From a virus (Duplodnaviria; Caudoviricetes): DNA of 40,410 nt. Below the pieces are notes generated by a model. The model was given only the letters and a program-made list of their open reading frames with translations. It did not search any database and was not told the origin of the DNA. Positions 6,152 through 21,551 of this stretch are shown here, piece by piece. The position numbers and the translations under genes are program-made. How positions within the stretch are numbered: the first letter of the stretch is position 1; the number at the start of each line of letters is the position of its first letter. The DNA lies in IMG/VR virus record IMGVR_UViG_3300005805_000005, positions 1 to 40,410 of that record; one strand, given 5' to 3'.

Positions 6152-6522
6152 GGGGTGGCTTCCCAGGGTTCGCAATCGTCTCCGTACTCGACGTGCTCGC
6201 GAGCCTCGCCCTCGAGCGGTATCCGCATCAGCGATACGTGCGACGTTTTTGTGACGCGGCGATCCTCGCGGACTTCATCGGTCCACGTCGACTGGATGCG
6301 AAGGCACGCCTGCTGGATCTCGGTGGTTGTCGGGTCACGCTGGCGGGCCGGCTTCTGACGCAGGCTGCGGTCGTGTCTCGGCGGGAGCCCCCAGACGTGC
6401 TTGAGCCGGATGACCTGGTCGCGGGTAATAGTCCACCGCTCGCACAGTAGCCGCATGGGCATGTGCGTCAGCCAATCTGCTCGGAACGCCGTCAGGCTGA
6501 TGGTTGCGGTCTGACCTCGCAC
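6148..6522 (-). CDS. Hypothetical protein, possible HTH (GcrA-like N-terminus)
   Basis: PMRLLCERWTITRDQVIRLKHVWGLPPR resembles the HTH-LPxR pattern of 12617-13003; start uncertain. Confidence 0.5.
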   Translation of the reverse strand: MRGQTATISLTAFRADWLTHMPMRLLCERWTITRDQVIRLKHVWGLPPRHDRSLRQKPARQRDPTTTEIQQACLRIQSTWTDEVREDRRVTKTSHVSLMRIPLEGEAREHVEYGDDCEPWEATP

Positions 6523-7382
6523 GGCTCCGGCATCCAAGACATGAGCATTCGTTGGGACGGGTTCAAGTACAGATGCTGCCCGGTCGCTTCGGCGATGCTC
6601 TGGTGAAACGAAACATGCTCGCAGTCTGCGGTGCCGTCGTACGTTCCTTGCAGGTAGGCGTCGGTGCGGTAGATCGCCATTCCACCGAAAGCACTCGACA
6701 CGAGCACTGGCGGCGAGCCGACAGGCGGCAGCCACGAGAAGCCGAAGCCTCCGTAGCCGTTTTGGTAGGTGTCGTAATAGCAGCGATGCTGGCCGAGGCC
6801 ACGCAACGCCCACAGGTCGTAGTGCACCCAGACAGGGCCGTTGCCAAAGTCGTATTGAAACAGCGACACGCTCGACATGCCGTATGCACCAGGCATCTCG
6901 ACGAGCCACCCGATGCCACTGAGCACTCCCCTTTCGTTCCAGCCGCCCCAGGCGTCGAAGTCAACGACTACCACGTAGTCGGAATCTGCCGCGCACGCCC
7001 GCACCCATCGCTGGCATGCGTCGCGGTACTCGGCAAGGGCCACGGTGCGGCGGCCGGCAAACTCTGCGCCGTACTGTTCTCGCCCCAGCAGCTGGTAGTG
7101 GAACGTCGCCTCTTTGTGCTCGCGAGCAAACGCAGCAAGAACCTCAAGCGTCTCGTCCTCGCAGTCGTTGCTCTCGATGTGCAGCTGCCAGCCCTTGCAT
7201 CGACGCCCAAGGCTTTCGGCCAGGCCGAGGTTTTGTGCCAGCCTTGCGGCACAGTTTCGCGCCAGCCCAACGACGGCAATCGTGCTGTTCCGTAGCCGTT
7301 CGGCACCCTCGGCGACACGCTCCTGGTATGGCAGCAGGAATGGCTCATTTGGAAACCAGAGCTTTGCCGGCATGTCAGGCAT
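6492..7382 (-). CDS. GT-A fold glycosyltransferase (CAP59-like)
   Basis: IAVVGLARNC, YVVVVDFD (DxD), SAFGGMAIY, DCEHVSFH. Confidence 0.75.
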   Translation of the reverse strand: MPDMPAKLWFPNEPFLLPYQERVAEGAERLRNSTIAVVGLARNCAARLAQNLGLAESLGRRCKGWQLHIESNDCEDETLEVLAAFAREHKEATFHYQLLGREQYGAEFAGRRTVALAEYRDACQRWVRACAADSDYVVVVDFDAWGGWNERGVLSGIGWLVEMPGAYGMSSVSLFQYDFGNGPVWVHYDLWALRGLGQHRCYYDTYQNGYGGFGFSWLPPVGSPPVLVSSAFGGMAIYRTDAYLQGTYDGTADCEHVSFHQSIAEATGQHLYLNPSQRMLMSWMPEPCEVRPQPSA

Positions 7383-8142
7383 ACGGCACCTGCCTCCTGA
7401 CGCACATGGCGCGACGTACTTCTTTCGGCAGGTCTGTGGCGTTCACCCACTCGCGGCACCGCCGATAGAAATGGTCGCGGCTCTCGCCCTCGCGACCGAT
7501 GGCTCCGTACCCGGCCGGATCTTGCGTAAAAACCGCGCCGAACTGCGGCACGTACGTGCACCCGTGCATGGCGGCTACAGCGGCATAGCCGATGGCGTCG
7601 CTCCACGGACCCATGCACCAGAACTCACGATCTGCGAGCCAGAGCAGATGCTCACGGCGAATGCCGGCACCGATGCCCGTCTCGCTTGGCCACTGCCAGT
7701 GCACAATGCGGTCGCAGGTTGCCGCCGGATCAAGCGTGGTGGTCTCGGTGTACCCACTGATGACACCATGCGTGACGCGATTGGACGTGTCGCAAACGTA
7801 GTAGTCCGTGAACACCACCGCAGCGTCTGAATGAGCTTGAATGTGCTCTAGACACCCATGAATGAGAGCGTCGTCTGCACCCATGCACACGACGTGCGTG
7901 CCAACCAAAGACGGGTAGACCGCAGCTGACGCTTCCTGCCAATCGTCACTTTTCTCGTCGTGCCGGACGTAACGCACGCATGAGTAGTGCTGCTGAACTT
8001 GCTGCACAACGGAAGGCGTGTCATCCGTGCTGGCGTCGTCAATCACGACCACCTCGGCCGGTCCTTGTGCCGCCGCCGACGCAATTGCTCGAGCAAGCGT
8101 GCCTGCTCTGTTCCACGTCGGGATGACCACGGACACGCTCAC
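7375..8142 (-). CDS. Glycosyltransferase family 2
   Basis: VSVVIPTWNR..AIASAAAQ..VVIDDASTD..GADD. Confidence 0.9.
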   Translation of the reverse strand: MSVSVVIPTWNRAGTLARAIASAAAQGPAEVVVIDDASTDDTPSVVQQVQQHYSCVRYVRHDEKSDDWQEASAAVYPSLVGTHVVCMGADDALIHGCLEHIQAHSDAAVVFTDYYVCDTSNRVTHGVISGYTETTTLDPAATCDRIVHWQWPSETGIGAGIRREHLLWLADREFWCMGPWSDAIGYAAVAAMHGCTYVPQFGAVFTQDPAGYGAIGREGESRDHFYRRCREWVNATDLPKEVRRAMCVRRQVPYA

Positions 8143-8813
8143 AGCTTCGCTCCAGTGCAGATCGCGAGCCGATAGTGAGCCATAGGGCCAAACCCGGTAT
8201 GAAGCGTCTCGTCGTTCATGCCGAACAGGTACACGTTTCTCCAGTAGTGGGAGAGCGTGTCGCGCAGCCCCTGCTCGGTCTTGCAGTTGATGTGCCCGGC
8301 TCGGCTCACGGCCGATGCGTACGGCTGCGACTCAAGAGACGGGCAGCCGAAGATCACCGTGCCGTGGACGCCGACACTCAGCGCCATGTTGCCCAGAAAG
8401 AAGCCTTCGCGATCTGCCGGCACATGCTCCAGCACGTCGAGAGCGAAGGCGGCGTCAAACTCCTGCAGCAAGCGGTCTGGCGGAAAAGTCGGTCTAGCCG
8501 TCATGTCGTGCTTGCGTACTACGACGTTCTCCAGCTGCCGGCTTTTGGCGTAGCTCACGAATCGCTCGTCAAAATCCACGCAGACAAGCGTGTCCACACC
8601 ACGGGCCACGACGGCCGATGCCCAAGCGTCGCCGCAGCCCACCTCGAGCACACGCTTGCAGCCGGCCAGCATCTTGGCCACAAACTTGTAGCGGGCCAGA
8701 GTGAATCCAAGTCGCTTCGGGTCCGTTCGCCATGTGTAGTTAGCCATGATGCCAAGCTCGGCGAGCCCGCCAGAGGCTAGGTCGTGGAGCGGCTGGTACT
8801 GCGTCTCGCTCAT
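8139..8813 (-). CDS. Class I SAM-dependent methyltransferase (small molecule/glycan type)
   Basis: ARYKFV..VLEVGCGDAW, CVDFD, FDAAFALDVLEHV. Confidence 0.88.
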   Translation of the reverse strand: MSETQYQPLHDLASGGLAELGIMANYTWRTDPKRLGFTLARYKFVAKMLAGCKRVLEVGCGDAWASAVVARGVDTLVCVDFDERFVSYAKSRQLENVVVRKHDMTARPTFPPDRLLQEFDAAFALDVLEHVPADREGFFLGNMALSVGVHGTVIFGCPSLESQPYASAVSRAGHINCKTEQGLRDTLSHYWRNVYLFGMNDETLHTGFGPMAHYRLAICTGAKL

Positions 8814-9208
8814 GACACTCGCACGGTCGTGCGTCCTTCGCTGCCGTAGCTCTTCTCGACTACCAGGCGAGCCACGCATGTGTCATCACCGACAACGTCC
8901 TGCAGCGCGTCCAGCACGGCCTTGCCAATGTTGTCCACATCGGGCCTAGGCAGCCGAGGTGCCGTTGGCTTCACGCCACTCTTGTTCATGTGCGACGGCT
9001 TGCGGGCAAACACGGCGTCAATCACGACGTTCAGCGGTTCGTTCGTGGCCGGCACCCCTGCAACTCGAGCCGCTGCGGCGAGCGTCTGCCGGTAGGCATG
9101 CACAGGGTGTGCTTTTGGCACATACGCACGAGCACACCCGCCGCGAGTTGAGACACGCGGCCGAGGCTGCGGAACCGGGTCGCCTTCAACGGTGAACGTC
9201 CACGACAT
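8810..9208 (-). CDS. rusA: RusA-like Holliday junction resolvase
   Basis: GDPVPQPRPR, RPDVDNIGKAVLDAL..DD..V..K.Y. Confidence 0.88.
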   Translation of the reverse strand: MSWTFTVEGDPVPQPRPRVSTRGGCARAYVPKAHPVHAYRQTLAAAARVAGVPATNEPLNVVIDAVFARKPSHMNKSGVKPTAPRLPRPDVDNIGKAVLDALQDVVGDDTCVARLVVEKSYGSEGRTTVRVS

Positions 9209-9965
9209 GCCCTGACGGTAGCGGCGTCGTCAACTCGCCGGCCGTGACGTTGGCAATCCACTCCAGATAGTCGCCGACTCTGGTGTGGCCGCTTTCCTGT
9301 CCGGTCGTGCTCAGCACCTCGCCCTTGCCGTCACGCATGACGATGGAGTGAATGCCGGCCAGCCGGCCACGCACCAAAAGCGCGCCGCCAGAGTCTCCGG
9401 GTGCAGTCAGGATTTCTCTAGCAGATGTGCCAGCACAACCGTGGCAGATCCATAGGCTGCGGTCACGCCGGCAGATGGTATTGGTTCCGGCACGACGCTT
9501 GCCGTCGATGGTGTCGTAGCCTGTCGCGAGCGACCCCGTGGCTCCGTAGCCAACGATCACCACGTCGTCGCCGATGGCCTCTGTGCCGTCCGCTAGCAGC
9601 GGATATGCCGAAAACCCTAGCGGCTCGTCGCATTGCACTAGGGCCAGGTCGTGCTCGCCCATCATGGCGTGTTTAAAACGTGGATGCACGACGATGCGGC
9701 CGATAGACCACGAGCGGCGGTCGGTGTGAACACTGGCCTGCGTGGCGTCATGGACGACGTGAGCGGCGGTCAGCATCCACTGGTCGCCGATCGCCACCGC
9801 CGAGCCGCACCCGAGCTCGCCGTCAGCATTCTCGGTGTAAATCTTGAGCACGTATCCGTGCTGCTCGCCGGCCTCAAGGTAGCGGGCGTCGTCGATGTTC
9901 GGGTCGGTCGTGCCCGCAAAGGCCGACCCAAACAGGCACAGCAGGATGAGCACGAGACGCCCCAT
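9186..9965 (-). CDS. Secreted trypsin-like (S1) serine protease
   Basis: Signal peptide; LTAAHV, HDLAL, GDSGGAL catalytic triad. Confidence 0.9.
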   Translation of the reverse strand: MGRLVLILLCLFGSAFAGTTDPNIDDARYLEAGEQHGYVLKIYTENADGELGCGSAVAIGDQWMLTAAHVVHDATQASVHTDRRSWSIGRIVVHPRFKHAMMGEHDLALVQCDEPLGFSAYPLLADGTEAIGDDVVIVGYGATGSLATGYDTIDGKRRAGTNTICRRDRSLWICHGCAGTSAREILTAPGDSGGALLVRGRLAGIHSIVMRDGKGEVLSTTGQESGHTRVGDYLEWIANVTAGELTTPLPSGHVVDVHR

Positions 9966-9971
9966 GCAGCG

Positions 9972-10002
9972 AGCATCGCATGGGCGTCACGCTGTCTTGC
10001 AG
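9972..10002 (-). promoter_or_regulatory. Putative phage promoter CTGCAAG-N18-GATGCT (leaderless)
   Basis: -10-like hexamer lies 6 nt before ATG 9965. Confidence 0.5.
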
Positions 10003-10124
10003 CGTGTTACGACGCCTGCGTAGCAGCGGTGTAGCGATCGGAGCAGCCGCAGCGTGCAAAAGCGTGGCGTGCTATGCAGCAGTCAGGCGTGCTACGGGTA
10101 ACCGCAGAAACAGTGGTTCTGTGG

Positions 10125-10481
10125 CTACTCGTCGCTTTGTGGCGGGGCCGGGAGCGGCATCCAGTGGGTTGGCGTCGCGTATGCCTTGTTTCCGCGAATG
10201 TCTACCCATCCCGCGAGCCCCTCGTGCTGTAGCACTTCGCACCAGCCGTCAAAGTCATCAACGCACAGGACCGGCTTTCCGCTTTCCGGCAGCGACTGGC
10301 CCACAGGAATCCAACGCGGAATCTTTTCCCACAGTGCCCGCATGGCGTTGTCAGTGAGCGTGTCAGTCTCGTCGTATGTCCATTCCGCTCCACAGTGGTC
10401 GCAGACTCCGCTTCCGGTGTACCCAAAGTGCGGATACGTCCCCGTTCGGCACAGTGGACATTCAATCCTCTTCTCGTTCAC
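10125..10481 (-). CDS. Zn-ribbon + DUF551 protein (cassette 1)
   Basis: CPLC..CDHC; WIPVGQSLP..VL..PTHWMPLPAPP; GAGGAGG RBS. Confidence 0.8.
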   Translation of the reverse strand: MNEKRIECPLCRTGTYPHFGYTGSGVCDHCGAEWTYDETDTLTDNAMRALWEKIPRWIPVGQSLPESGKPVLCVDDFDGWCEVLQHEGLAGWVDIRGNKAYATPTHWMPLPAPPQSDE

Positions 10482-10511
10482 GATGCGTCCTCCTCGTCAC
10501 ACTCTACGCTC

Positions 10512-10560
10512 ACAGAACCACGCGATGCAGCGGACGAGCCGCTGATCGCTGGCGTTCTGT
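10512..10560 (+). repeat. attC-like site 1 (49 bp)
   Basis: ACAGAAC-CACGC-GATGCAGCGG-ACGAG-CCGCTGATC-GCTGGC-GTTCTGT. Confidence 0.8.
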
Positions 10561-10563
10561 GAA

Positions 10564-10992
10564 CTACTTGCTATCCGTTGGCGGGGCTGGCATCGGCATC
10601 CAGTGCGTTGGCTGCCAACCGTGCTTCGCTGATCTGATGTGCCAAACCTTGTCAGAGTGCGAGTAGTACCCAATGCTCAGCAGGTGCCCGCCGTCTTGGT
10701 ATTGCAGTGCAACAAAGACATCGTCGCTGCTCTGTCCTGCGCGATGGAGAATCGGCGGAAGTCTCTCCGCTGATTGAATCCACTGCCCGACAGTTATTCC
10801 GTTTAGAACTCGCTCTGCCATGCTCTCGGCAGCCCGCTGACCAGTGCCTTCAAGCATCATGCCTGTTAGCGTGCTGGCAGCAATCAGTTCGTCGCGGCAG
10901 TCACGCAGGCACCTTGTCACTTCAAACTCTTCGATCTCAGCCTGCGGCGTGTTCGCCAGCAGGGCGTCGATTCGTGCAATGATGTCGTTCAT
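10564..10992 (-). CDS. DUF551 domain protein (cassette 2)
   Basis: WIQSAERLP..V..QPTHWMPMPAPP. Confidence 0.8.
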   Translation of the reverse strand: MNDIIARIDALLANTPQAEIEEFEVTRCLRDCRDELIAASTLTGMMLEGTGQRAAESMAERVLNGITVGQWIQSAERLPPILHRAGQSSDDVFVALQYQDGGHLLSIGYYSHSDKVWHIRSAKHGWQPTHWMPMPAPPTDSK

Positions 10993-11010
10993 GTCTCAAT
11001 CTCTACGCTC

Positions 11011-11066
11011 ACAGAACCAGCGGATGAAGCGGACGGCGAAGCCGTCGCTTATCCTGCGCGTTCTGT
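11011..11066 (+). repeat. attC-like site 2 (56 bp)
   Basis: ACAGAAC-CAGCG-GATGAAGCGGACGGC-GAA-GCCGTCGCTTATC-CTGCGC-GTTCTGT. Confidence 0.8.
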
Positions 11067-11068
11067 GG

Positions 11069-11362
11069 CTACTTGTTGCTGAACTGGTACACGGGGTTGA
11101 TGTGCGGAATCCTCGCTCCTGCCGCGACCGGTCCAAACGAGGAATCTTCCACTTGAATCATGACGTTTCCGCGTTCGCTGATTCCGCATGACGCCACGCG
11201 AGCCGTGGAAGGAATCGCATCCTCGACGCATGACAACTCCTGCCCGTTGATCGTAACCCTTCGATCTTCGTTGATGGTGAGCAGCGAAAGAATCAAGTCG
11301 GGCGTGACTTCCAGCAGCCGCAGGTGCCGAGTCTTGTCCTCGACCAACGCTTCGTATCCCAT
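11069..11362 (-). CDS. Hypothetical protein (cassette 3)
   Basis: ORF fills the space between attC-like sites 2 and 3; AAAGGAG RBS. Confidence 0.75.
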   Translation of the reverse strand: MGYEALVEDKTRHLRLLEVTPDLILSLLTINEDRRVTINGQELSCVEDAIPSTARVASCGISERGNVMIQVEDSSFGPVAAGARIPHINPVYQFSNK

Positions 11363-11385
11363 CGTCAACTCCTTTCACTACGCTC

Positions 11386-11434
11386 ACAGAACCACGCGAT
11401 GCAGCGGACGGGCCGCTGATCGCTGGCGTTCTGC
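11386..11434 (+). repeat. attC-like site 3 (49 bp)
   Basis: Near-identical to site 1 but ends GTTCTGC. Confidence 0.8.
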
Positions 11435-11436
11435 TG

Positions 11437-12309
11437 CTAGTTCCCACAGTACCCTTCGCACTCGTCTTGAAACCCTCGCAGGTGCCGGAACATATTCATC
11501 TGCCCGCTCTTCTCGTCTGCGGGCCGCAGGTCAACCTCGTCCAGCGGCACGCACGCCTTGTGGACGAATCGCTCGGCCTTGAAACTGCCGCTTCGGCGGC
11601 ACACCTTGTCGATGTAGACCGCTCGCTCCCAGCCCTTTGAGTCCTCGTCTCGCAGCCGCCGCCACTCTTCGTCGGACTTGAACGGGCAGAAGACGCAGGC
11701 CGACCGTGGCGTCTCATACGGCATACGGTCCTTCAGGTATGCCTTGCAGTCGCTGCGATCCCATTGCATTTCCCACAGCGGAAACTTTGCCAGCCAATTC
11801 GACGGCTTGGCGAGGTATCGCTGCTTCACGCGAATTACCCGCTTCGGTTCATCAAAAGACAGCCCCATGTATTGAACGATCACATGCTCTTTTGGAACAG
11901 GCCGCCCGCTCGGAACCGACAGCGATTCCCGTATCCACTTTTCAATCGGCTTGATCTTGAAGTCTGCCGTGCATTGCCGCTGGGAAATGCCTTTCTCGCC
12001 GGTCGGCAAAAGCGTATACGCCGGGATGCTGATAAAATGGCTTCCGTCACGCATCTTGTTTCCAGCAGCATCCGCCCCGTCTTCCAGTGCCTTGCCAAGG
12101 CTACCCGCCGTCGTCCGAATGATCGGCGGCCCGCCTTGCTTCTCCAGCCATTCCAGGTGCCGGTACACCTCGTCAGGCTCCTCCTGCGTGTCGGCAAAGA
12201 TGGCGGCGTCAAATCGCGGCACCTCAGGCTCGTCGCCGTCGATACTCAGGAGATACAGGGCCGTGGACTGAACGCCCGCGCCAAGATTCAGGAAGTGGTG
12301 CTCAGGCAT
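11437..12309 (-). CDS. PAPS-reductase-like / adenine nucleotide alpha-hydrolase protein (cassette 4)
   Basis: NLGAGVQST PP-loop, AIFADTQEE, RQCTADFKI, PRSACVFCPF, C-terminal ECEGYCG. Confidence 0.8.
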   Translation of the reverse strand: MPEHHFLNLGAGVQSTALYLLSIDGDEPEVPRFDAAIFADTQEEPDEVYRHLEWLEKQGGPPIIRTTAGSLGKALEDGADAAGNKMRDGSHFISIPAYTLLPTGEKGISQRQCTADFKIKPIEKWIRESLSVPSGRPVPKEHVIVQYMGLSFDEPKRVIRVKQRYLAKPSNWLAKFPLWEMQWDRSDCKAYLKDRMPYETPRSACVFCPFKSDEEWRRLRDEDSKGWERAVYIDKVCRRSGSFKAERFVHKACVPLDEVDLRPADEKSGQMNMFRHLRGFQDECEGYCGN

Positions 12310-12332
12310 TTCTCATCCCCCACGCGGACGCA

Positions 12333-12421
12333 GCAGAACCAGACGATGCAACGGACGGCCCTGCTACGTCATGTGTCATGGTGAATTCTCCGGTGGCCGC
12401 CGTTGATCTTTCGTGTTCACC
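12333..12421 (+). repeat. attC-like site 4 (89 bp)
   Basis: GCAGAAC-CAGAC-GAT(G)CAACGG(A)CGGCC..GGCCGCCGTTGATC-TTTCGT-GTTCACC; two extrahelical bases. Confidence 0.8.
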
Positions 12422-12620
12422 GCAACCTAGCAATCTCGCGCGCCTGCCTCAGTATCTCCTCGTGCAGTGCCCGCTCGTTGTCAAACGTGACCCTCCAGCC
12501 GTCACGCTCTATTTGCAGCCGCTCAATCTCGTCCGCTGCCTCCGCGAGCAGCGCCGAGCGGTCTAGCGCACGACACGCACGGACGCTCTCGCGGAGACGG
12601 TGGACGAGGTCGTCGCTCAT
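12417..12620 (-). CDS. Hypothetical phage protein
   Basis: MSDDLVHRLR..EAADEIERL motif common in phage early genes; ATGA overlap. Confidence 0.7.
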   Translation of the reverse strand: MSDDLVHRLRESVRACRALDRSALLAEAADEIERLQIERDGWRVTFDNERALHEEILRQAREIARLR

Positions 12621-13003
12621 GCCCTGGCCCCTTGCGGCGCGTACTCGCCTCGACGCCACGCACTTACCTTGCCGATGGTCGTGTTGTGCCTCTCGCACCG
12701 CCGCTGCTGATAGTGCCGCTCGCGAAGCTCTCGTGCTCGAGCCTCTACCCACGGTGACAGAGCAAGTCCGCCCAGAGAAGCCGCCTCGTCCTCCGGTGAC
12801 GGTGCTGGCGGCTCCTGCGAAACAGGCACGTAGTCAATCTTTCGCCTCGGCAGACGATACCGCTGAGCCCAGTCGTAGATCGTGCTCGTTGACACCTTGA
12901 AACGAACAGCGATCTCTGCCTTGGTGCGGCCCTCGGCCCACATGGCAAACAACGTGGCCACATCGCCGCCAGTGTGGTGATTCATCTTCGACTTTGCTGG
13001 CAT
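12617..13003 (-). CDS. HTH DNA-binding protein (GcrA-like)
   Basis: LFAMWAEGRTKAEIAVRFKVSTSTIYDWAQRYRLPRR. Confidence 0.7.
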   Translation of the reverse strand: MPAKSKMNHHTGGDVATLFAMWAEGRTKAEIAVRFKVSTSTIYDWAQRYRLPRRKIDYVPVSQEPPAPSPEDEAASLGGLALSPWVEARARELRERHYQQRRCERHNTTIGKVSAWRRGEYAPQGARA

Positions 13004-14106
13004 CAGGCATCCTCCGACAGCGGCATGATGACGCCACGGTACTCGCCGCACGTCAGCGTCACAGCGCCGCCGGGCCCGGTCGTGTGAATCGACACGTTCG
13101 GCTCCTCGTCGCTCGGCAAGCCGTGCAGGTACTCAATCACGAATCGAGGATCCATCTTGACCTTGCACGACGTGCCGGCATGCACAACGTCGCACCGCAC
13201 CTTGCTTTCGCCGTACTCCGATGACTTGCCGGTGAGCACCAGAGAATCACTAAAGTCGTACAGCACGCCCTTGGACTGCTCGCTGGTCACGACGCCGGCC
13301 GCTCTGGTGGCTGCCAAGAGCTCGCCGCGGTCAACCGCGTGCGGCTGAGTGCTTGCCTCGGGAAACACGTCACGCCACCGAGGAAACTTGCCCTCAAGCA
13401 GGCGAGCCGTCAGCACGCCACCGTCGAATGTAAACACCACGTCGCTCTTGGTGGCCTCGATCTGCACCGAGCCCTCGCTACGCTCAGCAAGCGTAGATGC
13501 GAATCGCATGGCCACGGCAGGGACCAGCGTCTGTGAGTCGTCCACCGCCTGGTCGGTTTCAGTCTGAACCGCCGAGAGCCGCCGGCCATCGGTGCCCACA
13601 AACGTAGGGTCGCCACCAGTCACGTCGATGAGCACCGCACCAAGGGCGTAGCGGCTGGACTCGCTATCCGTGGCATACGACACGGCACGAATTGCCCTGA
13701 CGAACTGGTCGGCCGGCAGGCGGCACACAGGCCTGGCGTCAGCAGGCTCCCAAATCGGGTACTCAGCCACGTCTTCGCTTGGCAGTGTCCACGATCCACG
13801 ACCGCACTTAATCTTCACGATGCCGCCGCTGTGCGTCAGCGTCACGTCGTCGCCGTGGCTGCATGTCCGCAAGATGGCCAGCAGCCTGTCTGCGGGCAGC
13901 AACATAGGCTCGCACTGCTCGCCGATTTCTCGGTCAATGCGGATCTCCAGGTTCGTGCCCGTCACTAGCCCGTCACCGATGCGGACGTTGCCCAATATGG
14001 GCTTCGCTCCACGACTCGACACGACTCTAGTCACGTCCTGCAAGGCCGCCAGCAGCGTGCCGGCCTGCATGGTCAGTCCAGTTCTCTCCCTAGTTGCTGT
14101 CGCCAT
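13003..14106 (-). CDS. dnaN: DNA polymerase III beta sliding clamp
   Basis: KPILGNV, GTNLEI, SRYALGAV, VGTDGRRL, RLLEGKFPRW, C-terminal VIMP; about 367 aa. Confidence 0.92.
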   Translation of the reverse strand: MATATRERTGLTMQAGTLLAALQDVTRVVSSRGAKPILGNVRIGDGLVTGTNLEIRIDREIGEQCEPMLLPADRLLAILRTCSHGDDVTLTHSGGIVKIKCGRGSWTLPSEDVAEYPIWEPADARPVCRLPADQFVRAIRAVSYATDSESSRYALGAVLIDVTGGDPTFVGTDGRRLSAVQTETDQAVDDSQTLVPAVAMRFASTLAERSEGSVQIEATKSDVVFTFDGGVLTARLLEGKFPRWRDVFPEASTQPHAVDRGELLAATRAAGVVTSEQSKGVLYDFSDSLVLTGKSSEYGESKVRCDVVHAGTSCKVKMDPRFVIEYLHGLPSDEEPNVSIHTTGPGGAVTLTCGEYRGVIMPLSEDA

Positions 14107-14215
14107 TCCGTGGCTCCTTTCGCGCAAGTGTCATCCCCACCAAAATGCCGAGCACGAACGTCGCGCCCAGCAGTGTTTCGCCGATCGAGATCCAGACAAA
14201 GTCGGTGATGCTCAT
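14090..14215 (-). CDS. Small single-TM protein
   Basis: 41 aa, hydrophobic core, ATGA overlap. Confidence 0.55.
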   Translation of the reverse strand: MSITDFVWISIGETLLGATFVLGILVGMTLARKEPRNGDSN

Positions 14216-14469
14216 AGACCAGACCCAGCATCGTCGTCCTCGAGAAGCGGCCAGGTCTTCGGCTGCGTCCTGGCTTCGATTTGCTCGAAATAGCACGCCT
14301 GACGCACCAGCCGGTCCTGCAGCTGCAGGATGGCGTCGGCAGCCTCAAGTGCCGTCCGCTGATTGCGGCGGATCTCTTTCCGCATCTCACGGTACGCAGA
14401 CCTACGGCACGCCTCGTCGCAGCAGCGTGCAAACTCACGCAGACGGGACACGATTACGTCAGGCGTCAT
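14212..14469 (-). CDS. Hypothetical protein
   Basis: 85-aa ORF, overlaps neighbours. Confidence 0.65.
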   Translation of the reverse strand: MTPDVIVSRLREFARCCDEACRRSAYREMRKEIRRNQRTALEAADAILQLQDRLVRQACYFEQIEARTQPKTWPLLEDDDAGSGL

Positions 14470-14686
14470 AGATCACCTCGATGTTGCGAGCCTTGCCTGG
14501 CGTGCGGCGAATGGCACCCTTTCGCTCCAGTGCGTCCAGGTGGACGGTTGCAGCGTGCGGCGACTTCGCACCAATCGCCTTGGCGATCTGCCTGACGGTT
14601 GGCGAGTAGAGCGCCATGTTGTCACGGATGAAATCCAGCACCTGCTGCTGGCGAGCGGTAAGCCGCTCCTTGGCGGTCTGCGTCAT
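14459..14686 (-). CDS. LexA DNA-binding domain-only protein
   Basis: LTARQQQVLDFI..PTVRQIAKAIG..S..HLDALERKGAIRR; no peptidase domain. Confidence 0.85.
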   Translation of the reverse strand: MTQTAKERLTARQQQVLDFIRDNMALYSPTVRQIAKAIGAKSPHAATVHLDALERKGAIRRTPGKARNIEVIYDA

Positions 14687-15546
14687 AGATCCTCCTCCTT
14701 GAGTTTCACAGCCTCGGCAAGCGCCACGACCTCGTGCGGCCGGCGGTAGGGTGCCGGCCGGTACTCGTCCTTCCACGCCTTCGGTGGCGGCTTGTCGTCG
14801 GGACGCTTGCCAGGCTCACGGTTCGTGCCGCCCTTGTCCTGGCACCGGGACAGCCAACGCACGACGAAGGCCCGCCAGTTTCGGCGGCCGGCTCGGCTCG
14901 GGTTTGCCTTGAGCCAGGCGGTGGCCTTGGCCAGTTCCTGGTCTAGGACGGCACCAGGGAACGCTTCGGCCCACTCCTGGCGGTCTGCGTCCGTGATGCC
15001 CTGCCAGCCGGATTCCGAAGACCACGACACGGCGGACTTCGCCCGCGAGCGAGCCGCAGGCTTGCTCGTGGGAACCGGCGCAGCCGGTTGTATTTCTTCT
15101 TCTCTCCTGTCCTCTCCTGTCTTCTCCTGTAGTGACGCCGCAGCGCCACCACCCTGTGACGGTGGTGCGTCACACCCCTGTGACGGTGCACCGTCACGCG
15201 AGCGCCACCGGTAGGAATCCTGCCGTTTTGCGTGGGTCGCACGCGCCTTTGCAGCCTGTGAAAACCGCTTTTCCCACCCAGCTATGACGATGGTGCCGCT
15301 CAAAAACGTCACCCATCCGACCCGCTCAACAGCCAGCCAGAACGCCTCGTCCCCGCCGGCGACAGCCGCAACACGCCTGGGCGTGGCCCGGATCGTGCCG
15401 TCTGACGAGTTGAGGGCAGCCCATGACCACAACTGGATGAGACGCCAGCAGACAACCTCAACAGGCAGCCCGGTTTCGTCCACCAGTTCGAGCACCTCGG
15501 GCTTGGTGCCGAGGTTGCAGTCAAGGGGAATCCATTCACCGGCCAT
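14683..15546 (-). CDS. Putative replication initiator
   Basis: MAGEWIPLDCNLGTKPEV N-terminus, internal repeat linker, helical C-terminal domain (WLKANP..NWRAFVVRWL). Confidence 0.7.
   Translation of the reverse strand: MAGEWIPLDCNLGTKPEVLELVDETGLPVEVVCWRLIQLWSWAALNSSDGTIRATPRRVAAVAGGDEAFWLAVERVGWVTFLSGTIVIAGWEKRFSQAAKARATHAKRQDSYRWRSRDGAPSQGCDAPPSQGGGAAASLQEKTGEDRREEEIQPAAPVPTSKPAARSRAKSAVSWSSESGWQGITDADRQEWAEAFPGAVLDQELAKATAWLKANPSRAGRRNWRAFVVRWLSRCQDKGGTNREPGKRPDDKPPPKAWKDEYRPAPYRRPHEVVALAEAVKLKEEDL
15131..15198. repeat. GTGACG iteron-like repeats, putative replication origin
   Basis: Five GTGACG/CGTCAC copies, including CCCTGTGACGGTG twice, inside the initiator linker as in lambdoid O genes. 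Confidence 0.5.
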
Positions 15547-15556
15547 GGAAAGACTC

Positions 15557-16132
15557 CTAGCTTCGGCTGACCAACTCTCGCTCAACATCAAAGCCAAGGG
15601 CCGCTGTTTCCACCACCTGAAACTTCCTTGTCTTGTGGTGCCGACGGAACGGACGTTCGTTAAATGTGTCCGGGTGCATGTCAAAACGCATCAGCTTCAA
15701 AAGCTGGTTGACGGTGATGTCTTTCCACTCCATGCCGGCCTGATGACTGCGGATGAATCGGCCCCACTTAATCCACTCGGAATCGTCTGGTGTCGTGCCG
15801 CTAATGCGGACAACGGACACGCCAAAGTTCACTAACTGCTGGCCATGCCACCTCATCTGAGGTTGAATCATTGCGTGCTTTTTTCTGTACGTGTCCGCCT
15901 GACTGTCTGTCAGATTCCCGCCCCTTGTCTTCCACTCAATCTCCATGAACACCTGCAGTTCACGGGTTCCGAGTCTGTCAACGCACGTTTTGTATCTGTG
16001 CCAAAAGGCATCAACGTCTGTCTGGACAACACCGCACTCTTGCGAAAATGCTGGCAAATCGCCCGTCTTTCCTTTTTCGCGGCACCATGCCATAAGCGGG
16101 ATGTCGCTACCGAAAAGCCTGTCCCTCGTCAT
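15557..16132 (-). CDS. Hypothetical protein, possible PD-(D/E)xK nuclease
   Basis: TDVD..MEIEWK motif; coupled to the MTase. Confidence 0.5.
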   Translation of the reverse strand: MTRDRLFGSDIPLMAWCREKGKTGDLPAFSQECGVVQTDVDAFWHRYKTCVDRLGTRELQVFMEIEWKTRGGNLTDSQADTYRKKHAMIQPQMRWHGQQLVNFGVSVVRISGTTPDDSEWIKWGRFIRSHQAGMEWKDITVNQLLKLMRFDMHPDTFNERPFRRHHKTRKFQVVETAALGFDVERELVSRS

Positions 16133-17280
16133 TTCTGCAGCTCCTTGATTCGCTCGCTCGCCTTAGCGAGATTCGCCTCGTCAATCTCAAACGCAGCCCA
16201 CTTTCGGCCGAGCCCAACGCACGCTGCTGGAGTGGTTCCGCCTCCACAAAACGGGTCCACAACAAACCCGTCTTGTTCCGTAAGAAGTTCGATGAAATAG
16301 CGAGCCTCGGCCTCTGACTGCTGCCATTCGTGATGCGACTTTTCGCGGCTTCCTGTCGCCACATCGTTCACGAATGTCGTTTTGTCTCCTCGCGTCTCCT
16401 TGACAAACCAGAGCATCGGCTTCCAGCCGTTGACGATGCCGTACTCGTTCATTCGCAGGAGCGTCGGCCCGCTGTGGTAGCAAGAGCACGTCCACCAGTA
16501 GCGCAGGTGCTTTGACAGGTCAGCCACCGCGTCTGGCAGTTGAATCTGACCGATGTAGGCAATGAGGCTTCCGCCTGGGCGCAGCACTCTCGCGGCAAAC
16601 TTGCCGAGCGGCTCGAACAGTTCGATTGCCTTTCGGTCGTATGGCGGGTCAGTGAAGATCAGGTCAACCGACGCATCGGGTATCTTGTCGCCGATCTCTC
16701 GGAAGTCGCCAAGGAACAGGCCGTCCACTGACTTCCTTCGTTTCTTCGCCTCGGCCTTTTCGGCGTCGCGTTTTGCAGACTGCTGTTCGTCGCGGATCTC
16801 CGACACGCACTTCTTGCACGAAAAGTCGGCACCCTTCTCGGTCGCCGCTGCCGCCCTAGCGTCGATCTCCTCTGGCGTCAGTGCCAACAGCTTGACGCCG
16901 GCGGCGGCGATGTTGGGGTTGATGCCTAGGTCAGACAAAAACATCACGTCCCGTGAGGTTTCTCCGGAATCATCATCGACCGTGATCTTTTTCGGGCGAC
17001 CTTGTTTCGCCAACACCCCCTCATCCCTCATCCGCTGCGTCAGTTCGCCTACCTTGCGAACGGCCTTCGTGTGTGATGCGGCGCAGCGGTTCTGAACGGC
17101 CTTGCTGGCATCGACCTGACGTGCGAGCAGTTTGCACGCCGCGGCCATGTCGTATGCACGAAGAACTTCGTCCGGCTCAAATGCCGTGGCGATAGCTTGT
17201 TCGACCTGCGCCTGCGTCCGGTCAATTGATTCGGCAGTAATCGCTGAGCGTCGCTTGATTGGTGCAATCGTCCGTGGCAT
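16129..17280 (-). CDS. DNA N6-adenine/N4-cytosine methyltransferase (beta class) with N-terminal extension
   Basis: DLIFTDPPY then VVDPFCGGGTT; AAGGAGG RBS. Confidence 0.9.
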   Translation of the reverse strand: MPRTIAPIKRRSAITAESIDRTQAQVEQAIATAFEPDEVLRAYDMAAACKLLARQVDASKAVQNRCAASHTKAVRKVGELTQRMRDEGVLAKQGRPKKITVDDDSGETSRDVMFLSDLGINPNIAAAGVKLLALTPEEIDARAAAATEKGADFSCKKCVSEIRDEQQSAKRDAEKAEAKKRRKSVDGLFLGDFREIGDKIPDASVDLIFTDPPYDRKAIELFEPLGKFAARVLRPGGSLIAYIGQIQLPDAVADLSKHLRYWWTCSCYHSGPTLLRMNEYGIVNGWKPMLWFVKETRGDKTTFVNDVATGSREKSHHEWQQSEAEARYFIELLTEQDGFVVDPFCGGGTTPAACVGLGRKWAAFEIDEANLAKASERIKELQK

Positions 17281-17331
17281 GTCTACCTCCTTGCAGTGTG
17301 TTCTGAACCCGTGCCTACCGTGGCACACCCG

Positions 17332-17798: not shown

Positions 17799-18038
17799 CT
17801 AGTACCCGCTTCGATCTAGGTATGCGTCCTCTTGCTCCGTTGTTCGTCTTGAGCCAGGCCGCAGCCTGACGGGCGGCAGGCTTCTCCACCGCCGCCGGTT
17901 CTCGTCCTCGAGCCGCCGCCGCTCAATCGCTTCTGGCGTCCGCTCTTCAGCGATCTCGCGGTCGATGTCGTCCACGTACCTCGCCCACTCGTGACGATTC
18001 CGCTGCGGATCCGGCGAGAACACGATTGGCGTGCTCAT
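17799..18038 (-). CDS. Hypothetical protein
   Basis: 79-aa ORF with ATGA overlap. Confidence 0.6.
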   Translation of the reverse strand: MSTPIVFSPDPQRNRHEWARYVDDIDREIAEERTPEAIERRRLEDENRRRWRSLPPVRLRPGSRRTTEQEDAYLDRSGY

Positions 18039-18889
18039 GCCGTCACCTCGTGTTCGGCGGCCTCGTGGGCGAACTCCTGGCCGTTGTCGCTTGACTCGAT
18101 GAGCATCTCGGCCCGGTGCCGCATCAGGGCCACAAGCTCGTCGTGCTGGTCAGCCGTGAAGACGCCTTCGCCTAGGCGTCGATCAACTAGGCGACGTAGC
18201 GTGTCGAGTGCGTCCAGCGTCGCTGCCCTTGACACCGCGAGGCGTGCCTTGCCCATCGGGTCTTCGGCCGGCTGCTGCGGCTCGGCTGGCTTTACGACGC
18301 CTTCAAACTTGGGACGGACCACGACGGGCTCGCGGGCCGGATCGGGCTGCGGGTAGTCCTGAGCCTCCTCGGCCGTCACCAAGCCCTTTAGCACGTCGGG
18401 AAACGCATCCCGCAACGCGAAGCCTCGAGCCCGCAGCTGAAGCATCCGTTTCGGGTACTGCGTCCACGGGCCGCTCTTGCCCCACAGTCCGGCCTTCTTG
18501 GCGTCGGCAACGCTAAACCGTGCCACGACGTTAGCGTCCTTGCCCTTGCGGCTTGTCTGGCAGACGGCCGTCATATTGTCGCCGTCACCCTCAATCGTCT
18601 CGTGGATGCCGTCGCACACCTGGCTGGCCAAGCACAGGGCCAGGGCCGCGTCGCCCCAAATAGCAGGCCGCCCGTTGATGCAAGCAATGTTTTGCAGGCT
18701 CTGCATCGGGCTAAGCCCGATCTCGCTCCCGTGCTGAATGGCCAGCAGGCACGACTCGGGCTTCCCACGAAAGTCCTTTGGGGCAAAGTCAGACTTCGCA
18801 ACCATCTGTGCAAAGCGAAACGCATCGTCAAACGTTGCGAGTGCCAAGCCCCTGGCTGGCGTCGTGTTGGTGGAAATCTCTGTACTCAT
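18035..18889 (-). CDS. RecT-like single-strand annealing recombinase
   Basis: PKDFRGKP..G.EIGLSPMQSLQNIACINGRP, WTQYPKRML..RA..LRDAFPDVLKG. Confidence 0.85.
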   Translation of the reverse strand: MSTEISTNTTPARGLALATFDDAFRFAQMVAKSDFAPKDFRGKPESCLLAIQHGSEIGLSPMQSLQNIACINGRPAIWGDAALALCLASQVCDGIHETIEGDGDNMTAVCQTSRKGKDANVVARFSVADAKKAGLWGKSGPWTQYPKRMLQLRARGFALRDAFPDVLKGLVTAEEAQDYPQPDPAREPVVVRPKFEGVVKPAEPQQPAEDPMGKARLAVSRAATLDALDTLRRLVDRRLGEGVFTADQHDELVALMRHRAEMLIESSDNGQEFAHEAAEHEVTA

Positions 18890-20491: not shown

Positions 20492-20663
20492 ACTGTCCAT
20501 CGGCCCAGCAAGCCCAAACCACCGCCCCGGCACGATCCTGAGAACCAGATCGGCCGGCGCGGTAGAGTGGTCTGACGGGCCACCGTTTCACTGGAGGCGA
20601 GTACACATAAACACTTGTACAGTGGTGTACACTGGCATGGATGCCGCACGAGGAGAGGCAGCC

Positions 20664-21551
20664 ATGACGATGCGAGACTTGCTCGAGCGATACGCCCTGC
20701 TGCGGTCGCTGAACACCAAGACGACGAAGCTCTACGAAATGCTCCTAGACCGCCTAGATGCGTTTCTAGGACGTGAGGCGACCACGGCCGACCTAGATGA
20801 CCTCGTGGTCAGTCGGTACCTCAAATGGCGTGCAGAGACGCCACGGTGGAAAGGCCGCAAGCCATCGGCGGCAAGCGTGCGAAAAGACCGCGTCATGCTC
20901 CAGGCCATTTGGACGTACGCTGCTAGGAAGCGAATCGTGGCCGAGTTCCCTGAGCTCCCGAAAGTCAAGGTGCCTGCCCGACTCCCAACGGGCCGGGCCT
21001 ACACCGCCGACGACGTGGCAAAACTGATCCGGCGGGCCAGGCATCGCATCGGCAACACTGGCGGCGTGCCGTCCGCCTGGTGGTGGCAGACGATTATTTA
21101 CGCCATCTACTGCACCGGCGAGCGACTAGAGGCCACTATGTCGCTCCGGTGGGCCGACGTGGATCTGGAGCGGTGCCGGGTGGTGTTTCGTGGCGAGAAC
21201 CGCAAGGGCAGCACCAGGGACATCGAGCGGCAGATCACGCCCGAACTGGCCGCGATGCTGGCCATGCACCGCCGAGCCGACTCGGAGCTTGTGTGGCCGT
21301 CTGATCGCCGCAGCCGGTTTCAGTGGACAAGCCTAAAACTGCTCTGTAAATCGGCAGGCGTGCAGTACAGGGGCTTCCACGGGCTCCGCAGGACGGCCGC
21401 GTCTTATGCCGCTCTTGCCGGCGGGACCGCCGCCGCCACGCAGCTGCTAGACCACAGCGACCCTAAGCTCCAGCAGCGGTACGTGGATCCGCTGATTTGC
21501 CCAACGGACGCAGACTCAACAAGGGCGTTGCCGCCGCTGGACTTAAAGTGA
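20664..21551 (+). CDS. int: Tyrosine recombinase/integrase
   Basis: TGER (Arg), RK, HGLRR, LDH, RY catalytic residues; AGGAG RBS; no obvious IntI-specific insertion. Confidence 0.9.
   Translation: MTMRDLLERYALLRSLNTKTTKLYEMLLDRLDAFLGREATTADLDDLVVSRYLKWRAETPRWKGRKPSAASVRKDRVMLQAIWTYAARKRIVAEFPELPKVKVPARLPTGRAYTADDVAKLIRRARHRIGNTGGVPSAWWWQTIIYAIYCTGERLEATMSLRWADVDLERCRVVFRGENRKGSTRDIERQITPELAAMLAMHRRADSELVWPSDRRSRFQWTSLKLLCKSAGVQYRGFHGLRRTAASYAALAGGTAAATQLLDHSDPKLQQRYVDPLICPTDADSTRALPPLDLK

Follow-up and report, generated by a model that had tools for sequence, protein, structure and literature searches.

The occurrence of integron-type recombination sites within a phage operon raises the question of what moves the genes that lie between them, and whether these genes were drawn from the host or from other phages. 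The whole stretch of DNA analysed here (the window, 40,410 nucleotides) comprises positions 1 to 40,410 of IMG/VR virus record IMGVR_UViG_3300005805_000005, and a first-pass annotation, based on the sequence alone, had placed in it an array of four attC hairpins with phage genes as cargo. The four hairpins were found at the coordinates given there, and were scored with a covariance model of our own, trained only on 28 attC sites beside host IntI genes:

10512-10560, top strand plus: attC1, G|TT at 10554, 47.3 bits with the host-built model on the minus strand
11011-11066, top strand plus: attC2, G|TT at 11060, 32.9 bits
11386-11434, top strand plus: attC3, G|TT at 11428, 46.9 bits
12333-12421, top strand plus: attC4, with a long loop, G|TT at 12415, 42.7 bits

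Each site has the AAC and GTT cores, the 5- and 6-nt spacers, the L stem with an unpaired base and the variable loop of an attC site, in the order that had been claimed: AAC, 5-nt spacer, 8-nt L'' box whose fourth base is unpaired, loop, L' box, 6-nt spacer and GTT. The three variants of the covarying L stem are present exactly as they had been written, and the predicted folds show an additional bulge at sites 2 and 4, where a second unpaired base had been noticed. The proposed fit to an attC model was borne out on the bottom strand at all four sites; the host-built model gives exactly four matches in the window, all on the minus strand and at 33-47 bits, with the next best at 13.5. A pattern scan in which the letters of the L boxes were left free found four sites on the plus strand and none on the minus strand of the 40.4-kb window, compared with a mean of 0.11 sites and a maximum of 1 in 100 shuffles of it. 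Predicted fold energies of the top and bottom strands differ by at most 0.3 kcal/mol at all four sites, and an Rfam search of the window gave no match. As judged from sequence, the four sites are confirmed as attC-type hairpins inside a complete temperate phage.

The array is located within a single-direction phage operon, with the beta-clamp/HTH genes on one side and the protease/RusA genes on the other. Its intervals had been described as bounded by hairpins, which holds beyond the first; that one begins instead, at the downstream end of the operon segment, at a different kind of site:

10068..10122, plus strand: attI-like site, crossover G|TT at 10116/10117 in the R core

This site stands at the head of the array and is made up of two 7-bp direct repeats (10068-10074 and 10088-10094), a 7-bp L box (10104-10110), a 5-nt spacer and the R core. 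It is conserved in related phages and is homologous to a site found just after intI in Planctomycetota integrons. A profile trained on 21 phage attI-like sites, and on phage sites only, matches 4 of 37 host IntI loci (E 9e-6 to 5e-3; 33 have no match at E<0.005, and the best of 15 shuffles reached E 0.069), and all four matches lie 130-330 bp downstream of intI and can be aligned with the phage sites. The profile also matches in 9 of the 13 clamp relatives tested, five of which belonged to its training set. Some of these nine contain no complete attC by the family pattern, which misses some variants (for example in L009), so that counts of 'no attC' are lower bounds. No sigma-70-like promoter was found at attI by a scan that is weak for this host group. 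The first-pass annotation contains neither this site nor the reversed polarity of the genes, the two most unusual features of the locus.

The array and its genes can be listed as follows:

10117..10554, plus strand: cassette 1, 438 bp, closest to attI
10125..10481, minus strand: DUF551 protein, reversed relative to attC (PF04448; phrog_924/60/7704)
10555..11060, plus strand: cassette 2, 506 bp
10564..10992, minus strand: DUF551 protein with a different N-terminal part, reversed (PF04448 by Pfam, with PHROG searches)
11061..11428, plus strand: cassette 3, 368 bp
11069..11368, minus strand: protein without family, 97-99 aa, reversed, likely ATG at 11362
11429..12415, plus strand: cassette 4, 987 bp
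11437..12309, minus strand: PAPS-reductase-like protein, reversed (phrog_424)
12302..12379, minus strand: 25-codon ORF, start within the attC4 loop, preceded by a GGAG motif
12417..12620, minus strand: operon gene that directly precedes the array, with its TGA inside the final core

The four interval lengths agree with those first read, and the TAG of each main ORF lies 2-3 nt from the 7-nt core, as had been noted. The claim of exactly one ORF per interval holds for the main ORFs but has to be amended for interval 4, which also contains the 25-codon ORF, whose stop codon and the start of the following gene overlap. In the related phage locus L002, a DNA-methyltransferase-like gene is joined in frame to the same start in an attC4-type loop. 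The order of parts in a cassette is TT-core, stop codon, gene, start and leader, R'', L'', loop, L' and G, so that the gene is preceded at its 5' end by the cassette's own attC, which in many cases contains the ribosome site and start codon. The cargo was correctly recognized as two DUF551 proteins and a PAPS-reductase-like protein; the fourth protein, that of cassette 3, has no match in Pfam, PHROG or NCBIfam and none in a search against the viral contigs, and its seven homologues are unnamed or labelled only 'hypothetical protein'. For the PAPS-reductase-like protein a sequence search of the PDB gave no significant match, so the assignment of its chemistry reflects family likeness only. The DUF551 protein of cassette 2 has two relatives (50-52% identity) without flanking attC by the family pattern used.

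All four main cassette genes of the window are on the minus strand, opposite to the canonical direction, which follows the attC top strand; the forward ORF ending before R'' and expressed from Pc that characterizes a canonical cassette is absent from the window. Because the genes point towards attI, a Pc on the attI side would be unable to drive their expression. Across viral arrays, cassette ORFs with a PHROG match are reverse in 23 of 80 cases and forward in 0 of 68, whereas bacterial cassette ORFs with a Pfam match are forward in 20 of 45 and reverse in 0 of 42, the two sets having been scored with different libraries and the bacterial one without contigs L094, L111, L133 and L139. Phage core genes near arrays are opposite to the attC top strand in all 81 locus-gene pairs. 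The orientation of the longest ORF alone is noisy, and gives 73 of 90 reverse for viral intervals and 31 of 46 forward for genome loci once the same four contigs (7 of 8 intervals reverse) had been set aside as phage-like; with them included, 32 of 54 are forward and 22 reverse. Only L133 among these contigs shows phage structural genes, as judged by eye, and none of the four matches the core genes of the window. A ribosome motif with an ATG that opens an ORF of at least 60 aa is present in the loop of 43 of 63 long viral attC sites versus 2 of 109 bacterial ones, again with these contigs left out. Inversion of ordinary cassettes by top-strand recombination was considered and is ruled out by geometry, since gene and attC would invert together.

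Relatives with the same flanks contain different cassettes, and L002, which is 83% identical on the left flank, diverges directly after the attI core. In all four runs of one other study, left-flank contigs ~97% identical to the window end at 10122, the last core base. The expectation that breakpoints would fall at GTT cores thus holds on the left but not throughout: the right flank of the ~97% identical relatives resumes at 12520, within a gene and not at G|TT, and L310 also departs from it. With such breakpoints outside GTT, processes other than site-specific recombination must also contribute. L002 has an attC4 body of 95% identity, yet joined to another gene, the cassette-3 gene bears an attC2-type body in L310, and comparison of shared cassettes gave mixed results as to which attC body accompanies a gene. 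The cassette-3 gene itself recurs as a cassette beside other neighbours in L309 and L310. One joint that appeared to reflect reordering (11377 to 10504) lies inside a 33-nt exact repeat at a depth of 5, and is likely an assembly chimera; runs were compared as contigs, and at the remaining joints the two sides, from other phages, are separated by unknown sequence. A DNA search of positions 9900-12500 against INPHARED phages gave no match.

The cassettes themselves are units bounded by G|TT, have ends that form one attC in a circle, and occur at differing array positions. Over 83 distinct viral intervals, taken from related phages and not mutually independent, and from loci mostly collected with a pattern derived from the attC sites of the window, a cassette start pairs with its own R'' over a mean of 7.8 nt and that R'' with the next start over a mean of 5.0 nt (2000 permutations gave a mean of 5.3 and a maximum of 5.8 nt). 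Pairing with the own end is better in 65 intervals, equal in 11 and worse in 7, and in cassette 4 it extends over 10 nt versus 4 nt only with the next start. Such pairing would be useful only in an excised circle.

The PAPS-reductase-like gene links this pool of cassettes to ordinary phage genes. It is a cassette in L247, L248, L249 and L253/L259 and an ordinary gene in other phages; as a cassette it adjoins attI in L248, is enclosed by a pair of attC sites in L247, L249 and L253, and takes the final place in the window's array, with its boundary at the GTT core in every case. Only a few bases of homology are available at attI, which favours site-specific insertion there. The cassette alleles do not form one clade (p-AU 0.039). 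That the cargo consists of phage genes was upheld, as cassette genes are drawn from a phage gene pool and have free relatives in phage operons. When 68 phage cassette proteins were searched against 1.15 Mb of genome-collection loci, with the four contigs above left out, a single match was found, in a contig that is possibly itself phage.

The absence of IntI was likewise confirmed in the window (TIGR02249), and no IntI was found among 48 phage records, only 9 of which are at least 90% complete; intI adjoining attI, as in a complete integron, occurs neither in the window nor in these records. A planctomycete IntI had been suggested for recombination tests, and sites of the same attC family are indeed found beside IntI in Planctomycetota genomes. 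The likeness of the attC and attI sites, together with phage-like contigs (L133, L280) binned in Planctomycetota genomes, points to a probable host in this phylum. A portal search of 301 genomes of the order of genome G001 returned relatives that are at closest 33-40% identical and no close prophage that would fix the host, and IntI is present in 34 of 201 genomes of that order, many of which are probably incomplete. The phage encodes two proteins of its own that are relevant to recombination:

18035..18889, minus strand: RecT-like ssDNA annealing protein (phrog_561, PF03837), candidate for homologous exchanges
20622..21551, plus strand: phage tyrosine integrase (phrog_1), not IntI, no TIGR02249 match

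These proteins provide the basis for two other accounts of the locus. If the sites were derived from an integron in the past but their modules are now shuffled only by RecT-like homologous recombination at repeated leaders and attC sites, then the RecT-like gene, the 17-33 nt leader plus R''/L'' that three cassettes share, the exchange of attC bodies between genes, the lack of a single clade among the cassette alleles and the right breakpoint within a gene would all be accommodated. This account is nevertheless unlikely, as the attI-like site is retained in 9 of 13 relatives, the L248 cassette adjoins attI, a position that offers no repeat for recombination, relatives of 97% identity break at the core, and own-end pairing and the unpaired L'' bases are maintained throughout. 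It is less probable still that the chemistry is integron-like while the enzyme is the phage tyrosine integrase or the recombinase of a co-infecting element; the presence of that integrase and the detection of IntI in just 34 of the 201 genomes from the probable host order would agree with it, but the integrase gene lies 8 kb away and lacks a TIGR02249 match, and genuine IntI genes are accompanied by attC and attI sequences that match those of the phage.

Capture of a host integron piece (attI plus host cassettes) that was inverted and is now decaying would explain sites of host type, and prophage capture of such pieces has been described (PMC9892861). It is largely refuted and very improbable, because the reversal sets each gene against its own attC and is more than the inversion of a block, family-matched bacterial cassettes are all forward, relatives of the cargo occur as free genes in phage operons, at most one counterpart was found in the genome-collection loci, and the loops contain start signals. 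An even smaller chance attaches to the hairpins being purely RNA elements (terminators, processing sites or translation enhancers): on the mRNA strand they do occupy the 5' ends of genes, many with a ribosome motif and start codon, yet fixed spacers, the unpaired base, AAC/GTT cores, own-end pairing and the attI-like site have no explanation at the RNA level. A scan of the gene strand over 9900-13100 found no terminator, and the terminator reading is rejected. Besides recombination, the hairpins likely function at the RNA level as well.

The preferred reading, to which we assign a probability of roughly three in four, is that the phage maintains an attI-like site and four attC cassettes with backwards genes but no IntI, and that an IntI of the likely Planctomycetota host adds, drops and reorders them. 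This supports the earlier proposal of a plug-in accessory locus, in which a host integrase would be the agent. From known integron chemistry, IntI would fold and cut the bottom (minus) strand, excise circles at G|TT and insert them at attI, perhaps in lysogens or in infected cells upon IntI induction; new cassettes would arrive at the distal array end, and the genes would be read by run-through of the phage operon, without a Pc at attI. The mosaics suggest that gene interiors and attC bodies are in addition exchanged by homologous recombination, in which the RecT-like protein of the phage is the probable agent. The cargo found so far (DUF551, DNA methyltransferases, Mom-like and PAPS-reductase-like proteins) likely has a putative role in tuning host range or countering restriction. 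More tentatively, and with somewhat less than an even chance, Planctomycetota phages may run a mirror-image integron on the host integrase and act as cassette factories that turn ordinary genes into cassettes, the attC loop serving as translation start, with polarity separating phage and host pools. If so, host defence or toxin cassettes would be silent in a phage attI, and phage cassettes likewise silent in host integrons.

Phage attC clusters without IntI, with methyltransferase cargo as is also seen among the viral arrays compared here, are already published, and IntI1 recombined 5 of 6 phage attC sites with attI1 (Qi et al. 2023, PMC9892861); the first-pass annotation did not know of them. 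In that study attI is described only for class 1 and Shewanella integrons, the main text and supplement describe no reversed gene polarity, and related phages, or a gene in both free and cassette form, are not compared. Phage TJE1 of that study has the canonical gene direction at the two sites inspected here, unlike the window. A literature search on reversed or attI-bearing phage arrays, with subscription journals mostly outside its coverage, returned only that paper on the topic; phage CALINs are thus known, and the reversed, attI-bearing form was not found in print.

By its sequence, the window array counts as a CALIN as defined by Cury et al. (2016, PMC4889954), with at least two attC and no nearby intI. 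CALINs can be mobilized in trans by an integron elsewhere and are described as remnants or secondary-site insertions (PMC4889954; PMC11389934), but the window array differs in its own conserved attI-like site, its recurring place in phage operons and its reversed genes. Sedentary integrons of Planctomycetota (L100, L125, L132, L140, L239, L294) share the attC family and a homologous attI, and have intI in line with the array, as in the 'inverted integron-integrase group' (PMC4889954). Their cassettes differ in being forward and longer (median 686 versus 376 bp), in carrying toxin-antitoxin and metabolic genes, and in having loops without start signals.

Genes can also be inserted by an integron integrase in the opposite orientation, through recombination of the top strand (Nivina et al. 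2016, PMC5027507), or outside integrons, at secondary attG sites (10.1101/2022.09.11.507474). The window differs from both, as its attC sites are normal relative to attI and only the genes are reversed, and as its target is a full attI-like site rather than a short attG motif. Strand selectivity is held to exist to point genes away from Pc (PMC5027507); reversed polarity would break this rule, and the attC loop would gain a second job as translation start. The making of new cassettes has been called an unknown mechanism (PMC4889954), and one gene family that is both plain phage gene and cassette in close relatives makes their origin testable. One class of variable regions in phage genomes may likewise be explained by site-specific recombination. 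Integrons were recently shown to be stores of anti-phage systems (10.1101/2024.07.02.601686), and should phages retain an attI of their own and employ the host integrase to rearrange accessory genes, DNA-modifying ones among them, one enzyme would serve both sides of this conflict.

The window takes in a record in full, 40,410 bases that include a terminal repeat of 99 nt, and its genes, nearly all on the minus strand, encode terminase, portal, capsid, tape-measure, tyrosine integrase, RecT-like, replication, LexA-like, beta-clamp and RusA proteins, so this set of structural, integrase and replication functions marks it as a complete temperate tailed phage. The sequencing run that matches it best comes from a metagenome of lake water and may be its sample of origin. 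After RusA, the same operon continues with two genes for glycosyltransferase-like proteins and one for a SAM methyltransferase (6492-8879), a cluster that recurs, at least in part, in relatives, and the phage's own beta-clamp (13003-14127), LexA-like repressor (14459-14776) and N6/N4 DNA methyltransferase (16129-17328) genes lie outside the cassette array, which contains the following elements.

10068-10122, attI-like site: a pair of direct repeats, then a 7-bp box, a spacer of 5 nt and a GTT core (G at 10116)
10512-10560, plus strand, attC1, ending cassette 1 (DUF551 gene, minus strand); crossover G of GTT at 10554
11011-11066, plus strand, attC2, ending cassette 2 (DUF551 gene, minus strand); crossover G at 11060
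11386-11434, plus strand, attC3, ending cassette 3 (unknown gene of 97-99 aa, minus strand); crossover G at 11428
12333-12421, plus strand, attC4, ending cassette 4 (PAPS-reductase-like gene, minus strand); crossover G at 12415

When the sequence was re-read, the four hairpins, with their layout and the variants of their stems, were as the first-pass annotation had described them, and so were the lengths of the intervals and the places of the stops, with the amendment that the first interval begins at the attI-like site instead of at a hairpin. A scan based on geometry alone found 4 attC-type sites in the window, compared to a mean of 0.11 across 100 shuffles. An independent set of host attC sites was gathered, again by geometry alone, from regions around IntI genes in genomes of the order of G001 (a bacterial genome labelled Pirellulales, which holds locus L100), and a covariance model was made from 28 of 50 clustered sites. 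Against this model attC1 scores 47.3 bits, attC3 46.9, attC4 42.7 and attC2 32.9, each on the minus strand, with the next-best match in the window at 13.5 bits; these scores agree with the proposed identity of the four as integron attC sites. Decayed attC sites and half-sites were observed at the old end of arrays in two viral loci, L002 (8420-8575) and L007 (11495-11529).

The named parts of attI1 are an L box, an R box and two direct repeats (Figure 4 legend, PMC9892861). Among the loci scanned, an iterated profile of the attI-like motif matched 36 places: one in the window, 5 in genome loci and 30 in viral loci, some of which are duplicates. A second profile, remade from 21 phage sites only, matched 4 of 37 host IntI loci (E 9e-6 to 5e-3; best E on 15 shuffles, 0.069) and had no match in most of these 37. 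The four matches (L140, L239, L230 and L204) lie 130-330 bp downstream of intI, which looks frameshifted in L140, and weaker ones coincide with the stop of intI in L227 and L229; when aligned, the last 30 bases of a host site in genome G019 and the phage site are near-identical. Of 13 relatives found via beta-clamp and examined for this motif, 9 matched (5 of them training members) and L007, L018, L021 and L022 did not; L007 keeps a truncated attC site. In L100, L125, L132, L140, L239, L230 and L204, intI and the array share one direction and the attI-like site comes downstream of the gene (an inverted-integrase layout); the usual divergent layout occurs in L158 and L235. In L129, L135 and L147 an attI-like site of host type precedes forward ORFs and attC sites, and a search of the locus gave no intI motif; in L135 an integrase-sized ORF lies immediately upstream of the site. 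The gene just past attI also varies: in the window (9186-9965) and L002 it encodes a trypsin-like protease that has a hydrophobic stretch at its N terminus, and an unrelated 100-aa protein with a similar N-terminal stretch takes its place in L004, L007, L009-L011, L014 and L018.

A canonical cassette has a gene that ends ahead of R'' and, through selectivity for the bottom strand, faces away from Pc (PMC5027507). The window cassette genes stop in or just past the GTT core and start at the cassette's own attC. When the longest ORF on each strand of every interval was scanned, viral arrays gave PHROG matches for 23/80 reverse and 0/68 forward ORFs (submitted from 87 and 72, after exclusion of window genes, PAPS-reductase-like cassettes and one duplicate), whereas bacterial arrays, with four phage-like contigs (L094, L111, L133, L139) set aside, gave Pfam matches for 20/45 forward and 0/42 reverse ORFs. 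A ribosome motif and ATG in the loop open an ORF of at least 60 aa at 43/63 viral versus 2/109 bacterial long attC sites. Top-strand inversion of normal cassettes was rejected as a source of this polarity, since by geometry it would turn attC along with the gene. Searching with the attC pattern of the window sites yielded 61 viral loci; in 29 of them a window core gene has a homologue no more than ~3 kb away, and every one of the 81 locus-gene pairs is oriented opposite to the attC top strand. Reversed-gene stops fall mostly at three fixed offsets, +1, +4 and +9, in or just after the GTT core (L010-L083 and the window), so the recombination core is often a stop codon as well. From the attC4 loop a 25-codon ORF (12302-12379) overlaps the PAPS-reductase-like gene start, and in L002 (8870-9745) a near-identical loop start is joined in frame to a methyltransferase-like gene.

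Across 83 distinct viral intervals, which are not independent, pairing between a cassette start and the R'' of that cassette averages 7.8 nt, and pairing between this R'' and the start that follows averages 5.0 nt (permutations: mean 5.3, maximum 5.8); own-end pairing was better in 65, equal in 11 and worse in 7, or 62, 13 and 9 in a looser set of 84, and window cassette 4 pairs 10 versus 4. This test locates crossover between AAC and GTT without single-base resolution, and the position is better fixed by attI junctions: in L248 the PAPS-reductase-like cassette directly adjoins attI, in L247, L249 and L253 it has an attC site on either side, and in the window it comes last. Cassette 3 is likewise found beside different neighbours in L309 and L310.

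The beta-clamp search returned 22 loci, and those extending to RusA retain both flanks, differ in the genes between and have 0-3 pattern-matching attC sites, antisense to genes in every case. For example, L002 tracks the window through the attI core and thereafter carries a methyltransferase-like cassette. In another study, 4/4 runs contain a contig ~97% identical to the left flank whose match ends at 10122, the end of the core, but the right-flank match restarts at 12520, within the upstream gene; the predicted breakpoint at a GTT core thus held on the left and failed on the right. Besides this break within a gene, other results count against a pure IntI reading: attC bodies swap genes (the attC4 body is 95% identical in L002 on a different gene, and the cassette-3 gene of L310 bears an attC2-type body), and a shared-cassette test of which body accompanies which gene was mixed. 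From these sequences, homologous recombination evidently also works on the array locus, with the RecT-like protein as its probable agent.

The cargo was proposed to consist of phage genes, and it is phage-derived: viral cassettes match DUF551-type families, DNA methyltransferases, Mom-like enzymes and an excisionase-like protein, whereas host cassettes contain toxin-antitoxin genes, dehydrogenases and ankyrin proteins; 1/68 phage cassette proteins was matched in 175 genome-collection loci; and free relatives exist in phage operons. The one match (L103, 890-1129; 94% identity, adjoining one attC) is in a Cyanobium assembly, in what is probably a phage contig. Phages are known to carry homologues of PAPS reductase, whose role may lie in DNA modification (PMC11437467). 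In a tree of this family (25 of 34 loci, excluding duplicates, near-duplicate distant members and a fragment), 5 of 20 close members are cassettes and 15 ordinary operon genes, and 6/6 distant members are free, which makes the free state the likelier ancestor. The cassette forms require 3 changes, a single clade is weakly rejected (p-AU 0.039), and the window allele has a free allele as sister and shares its ends with other cassettes; repeated packaging, or a single packaging followed by gene conversion, both fit.

As first annotated, the phage lacks IntI: its tyrosine integrase does not match TIGR02249, against which the IntI proteins that accompany this attC family score 387-454 bits (four full-length proteins; one fragment, 212). 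A search of 48 phage records, 9 of which are 90% complete or more, gave no IntI; 2 loci fell outside this search. IntI was found in 34/201 genomes of the order of G001 (Planctomycetota), which indirect evidence points to as the likely host order; in one bacterial genome, G124, three IntI loci (L288, L297, L298) each carry arrays of near-identical 115-bp attC sites. The reversed array is real, and we put at about three in four the probability that host IntI acts in trans on the phage attI-like and attC sites, where it would add, drop and reorder the four reversed cassettes. For bacteria it is accepted that CALINs are acted on in trans (PMC11389934, PMC4889954), SOS and stringent responses induce IntI (PMC8618304), and prophages are also induced by SOS (PMC9892861), so shared induction might give a time window for cassette exchange.

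The literature searched contained no conserved phage attI of host type, no reversed phage cassette genes with starts inside attC, and no gene in both free and cassette form in phages. In TJE1, a phage with a published CALIN (Qi et al., 2023), genes are canonical in direction at the two sites inspected, whereas those of the window are reversed. By definition the window array is a CALIN, here one carried by a phage, and elements of this kind are known (PMC9892861; PMC4889954). Unlike a complete integron, it has neither intI nor Pc-driven genes, yet it putatively works like one.
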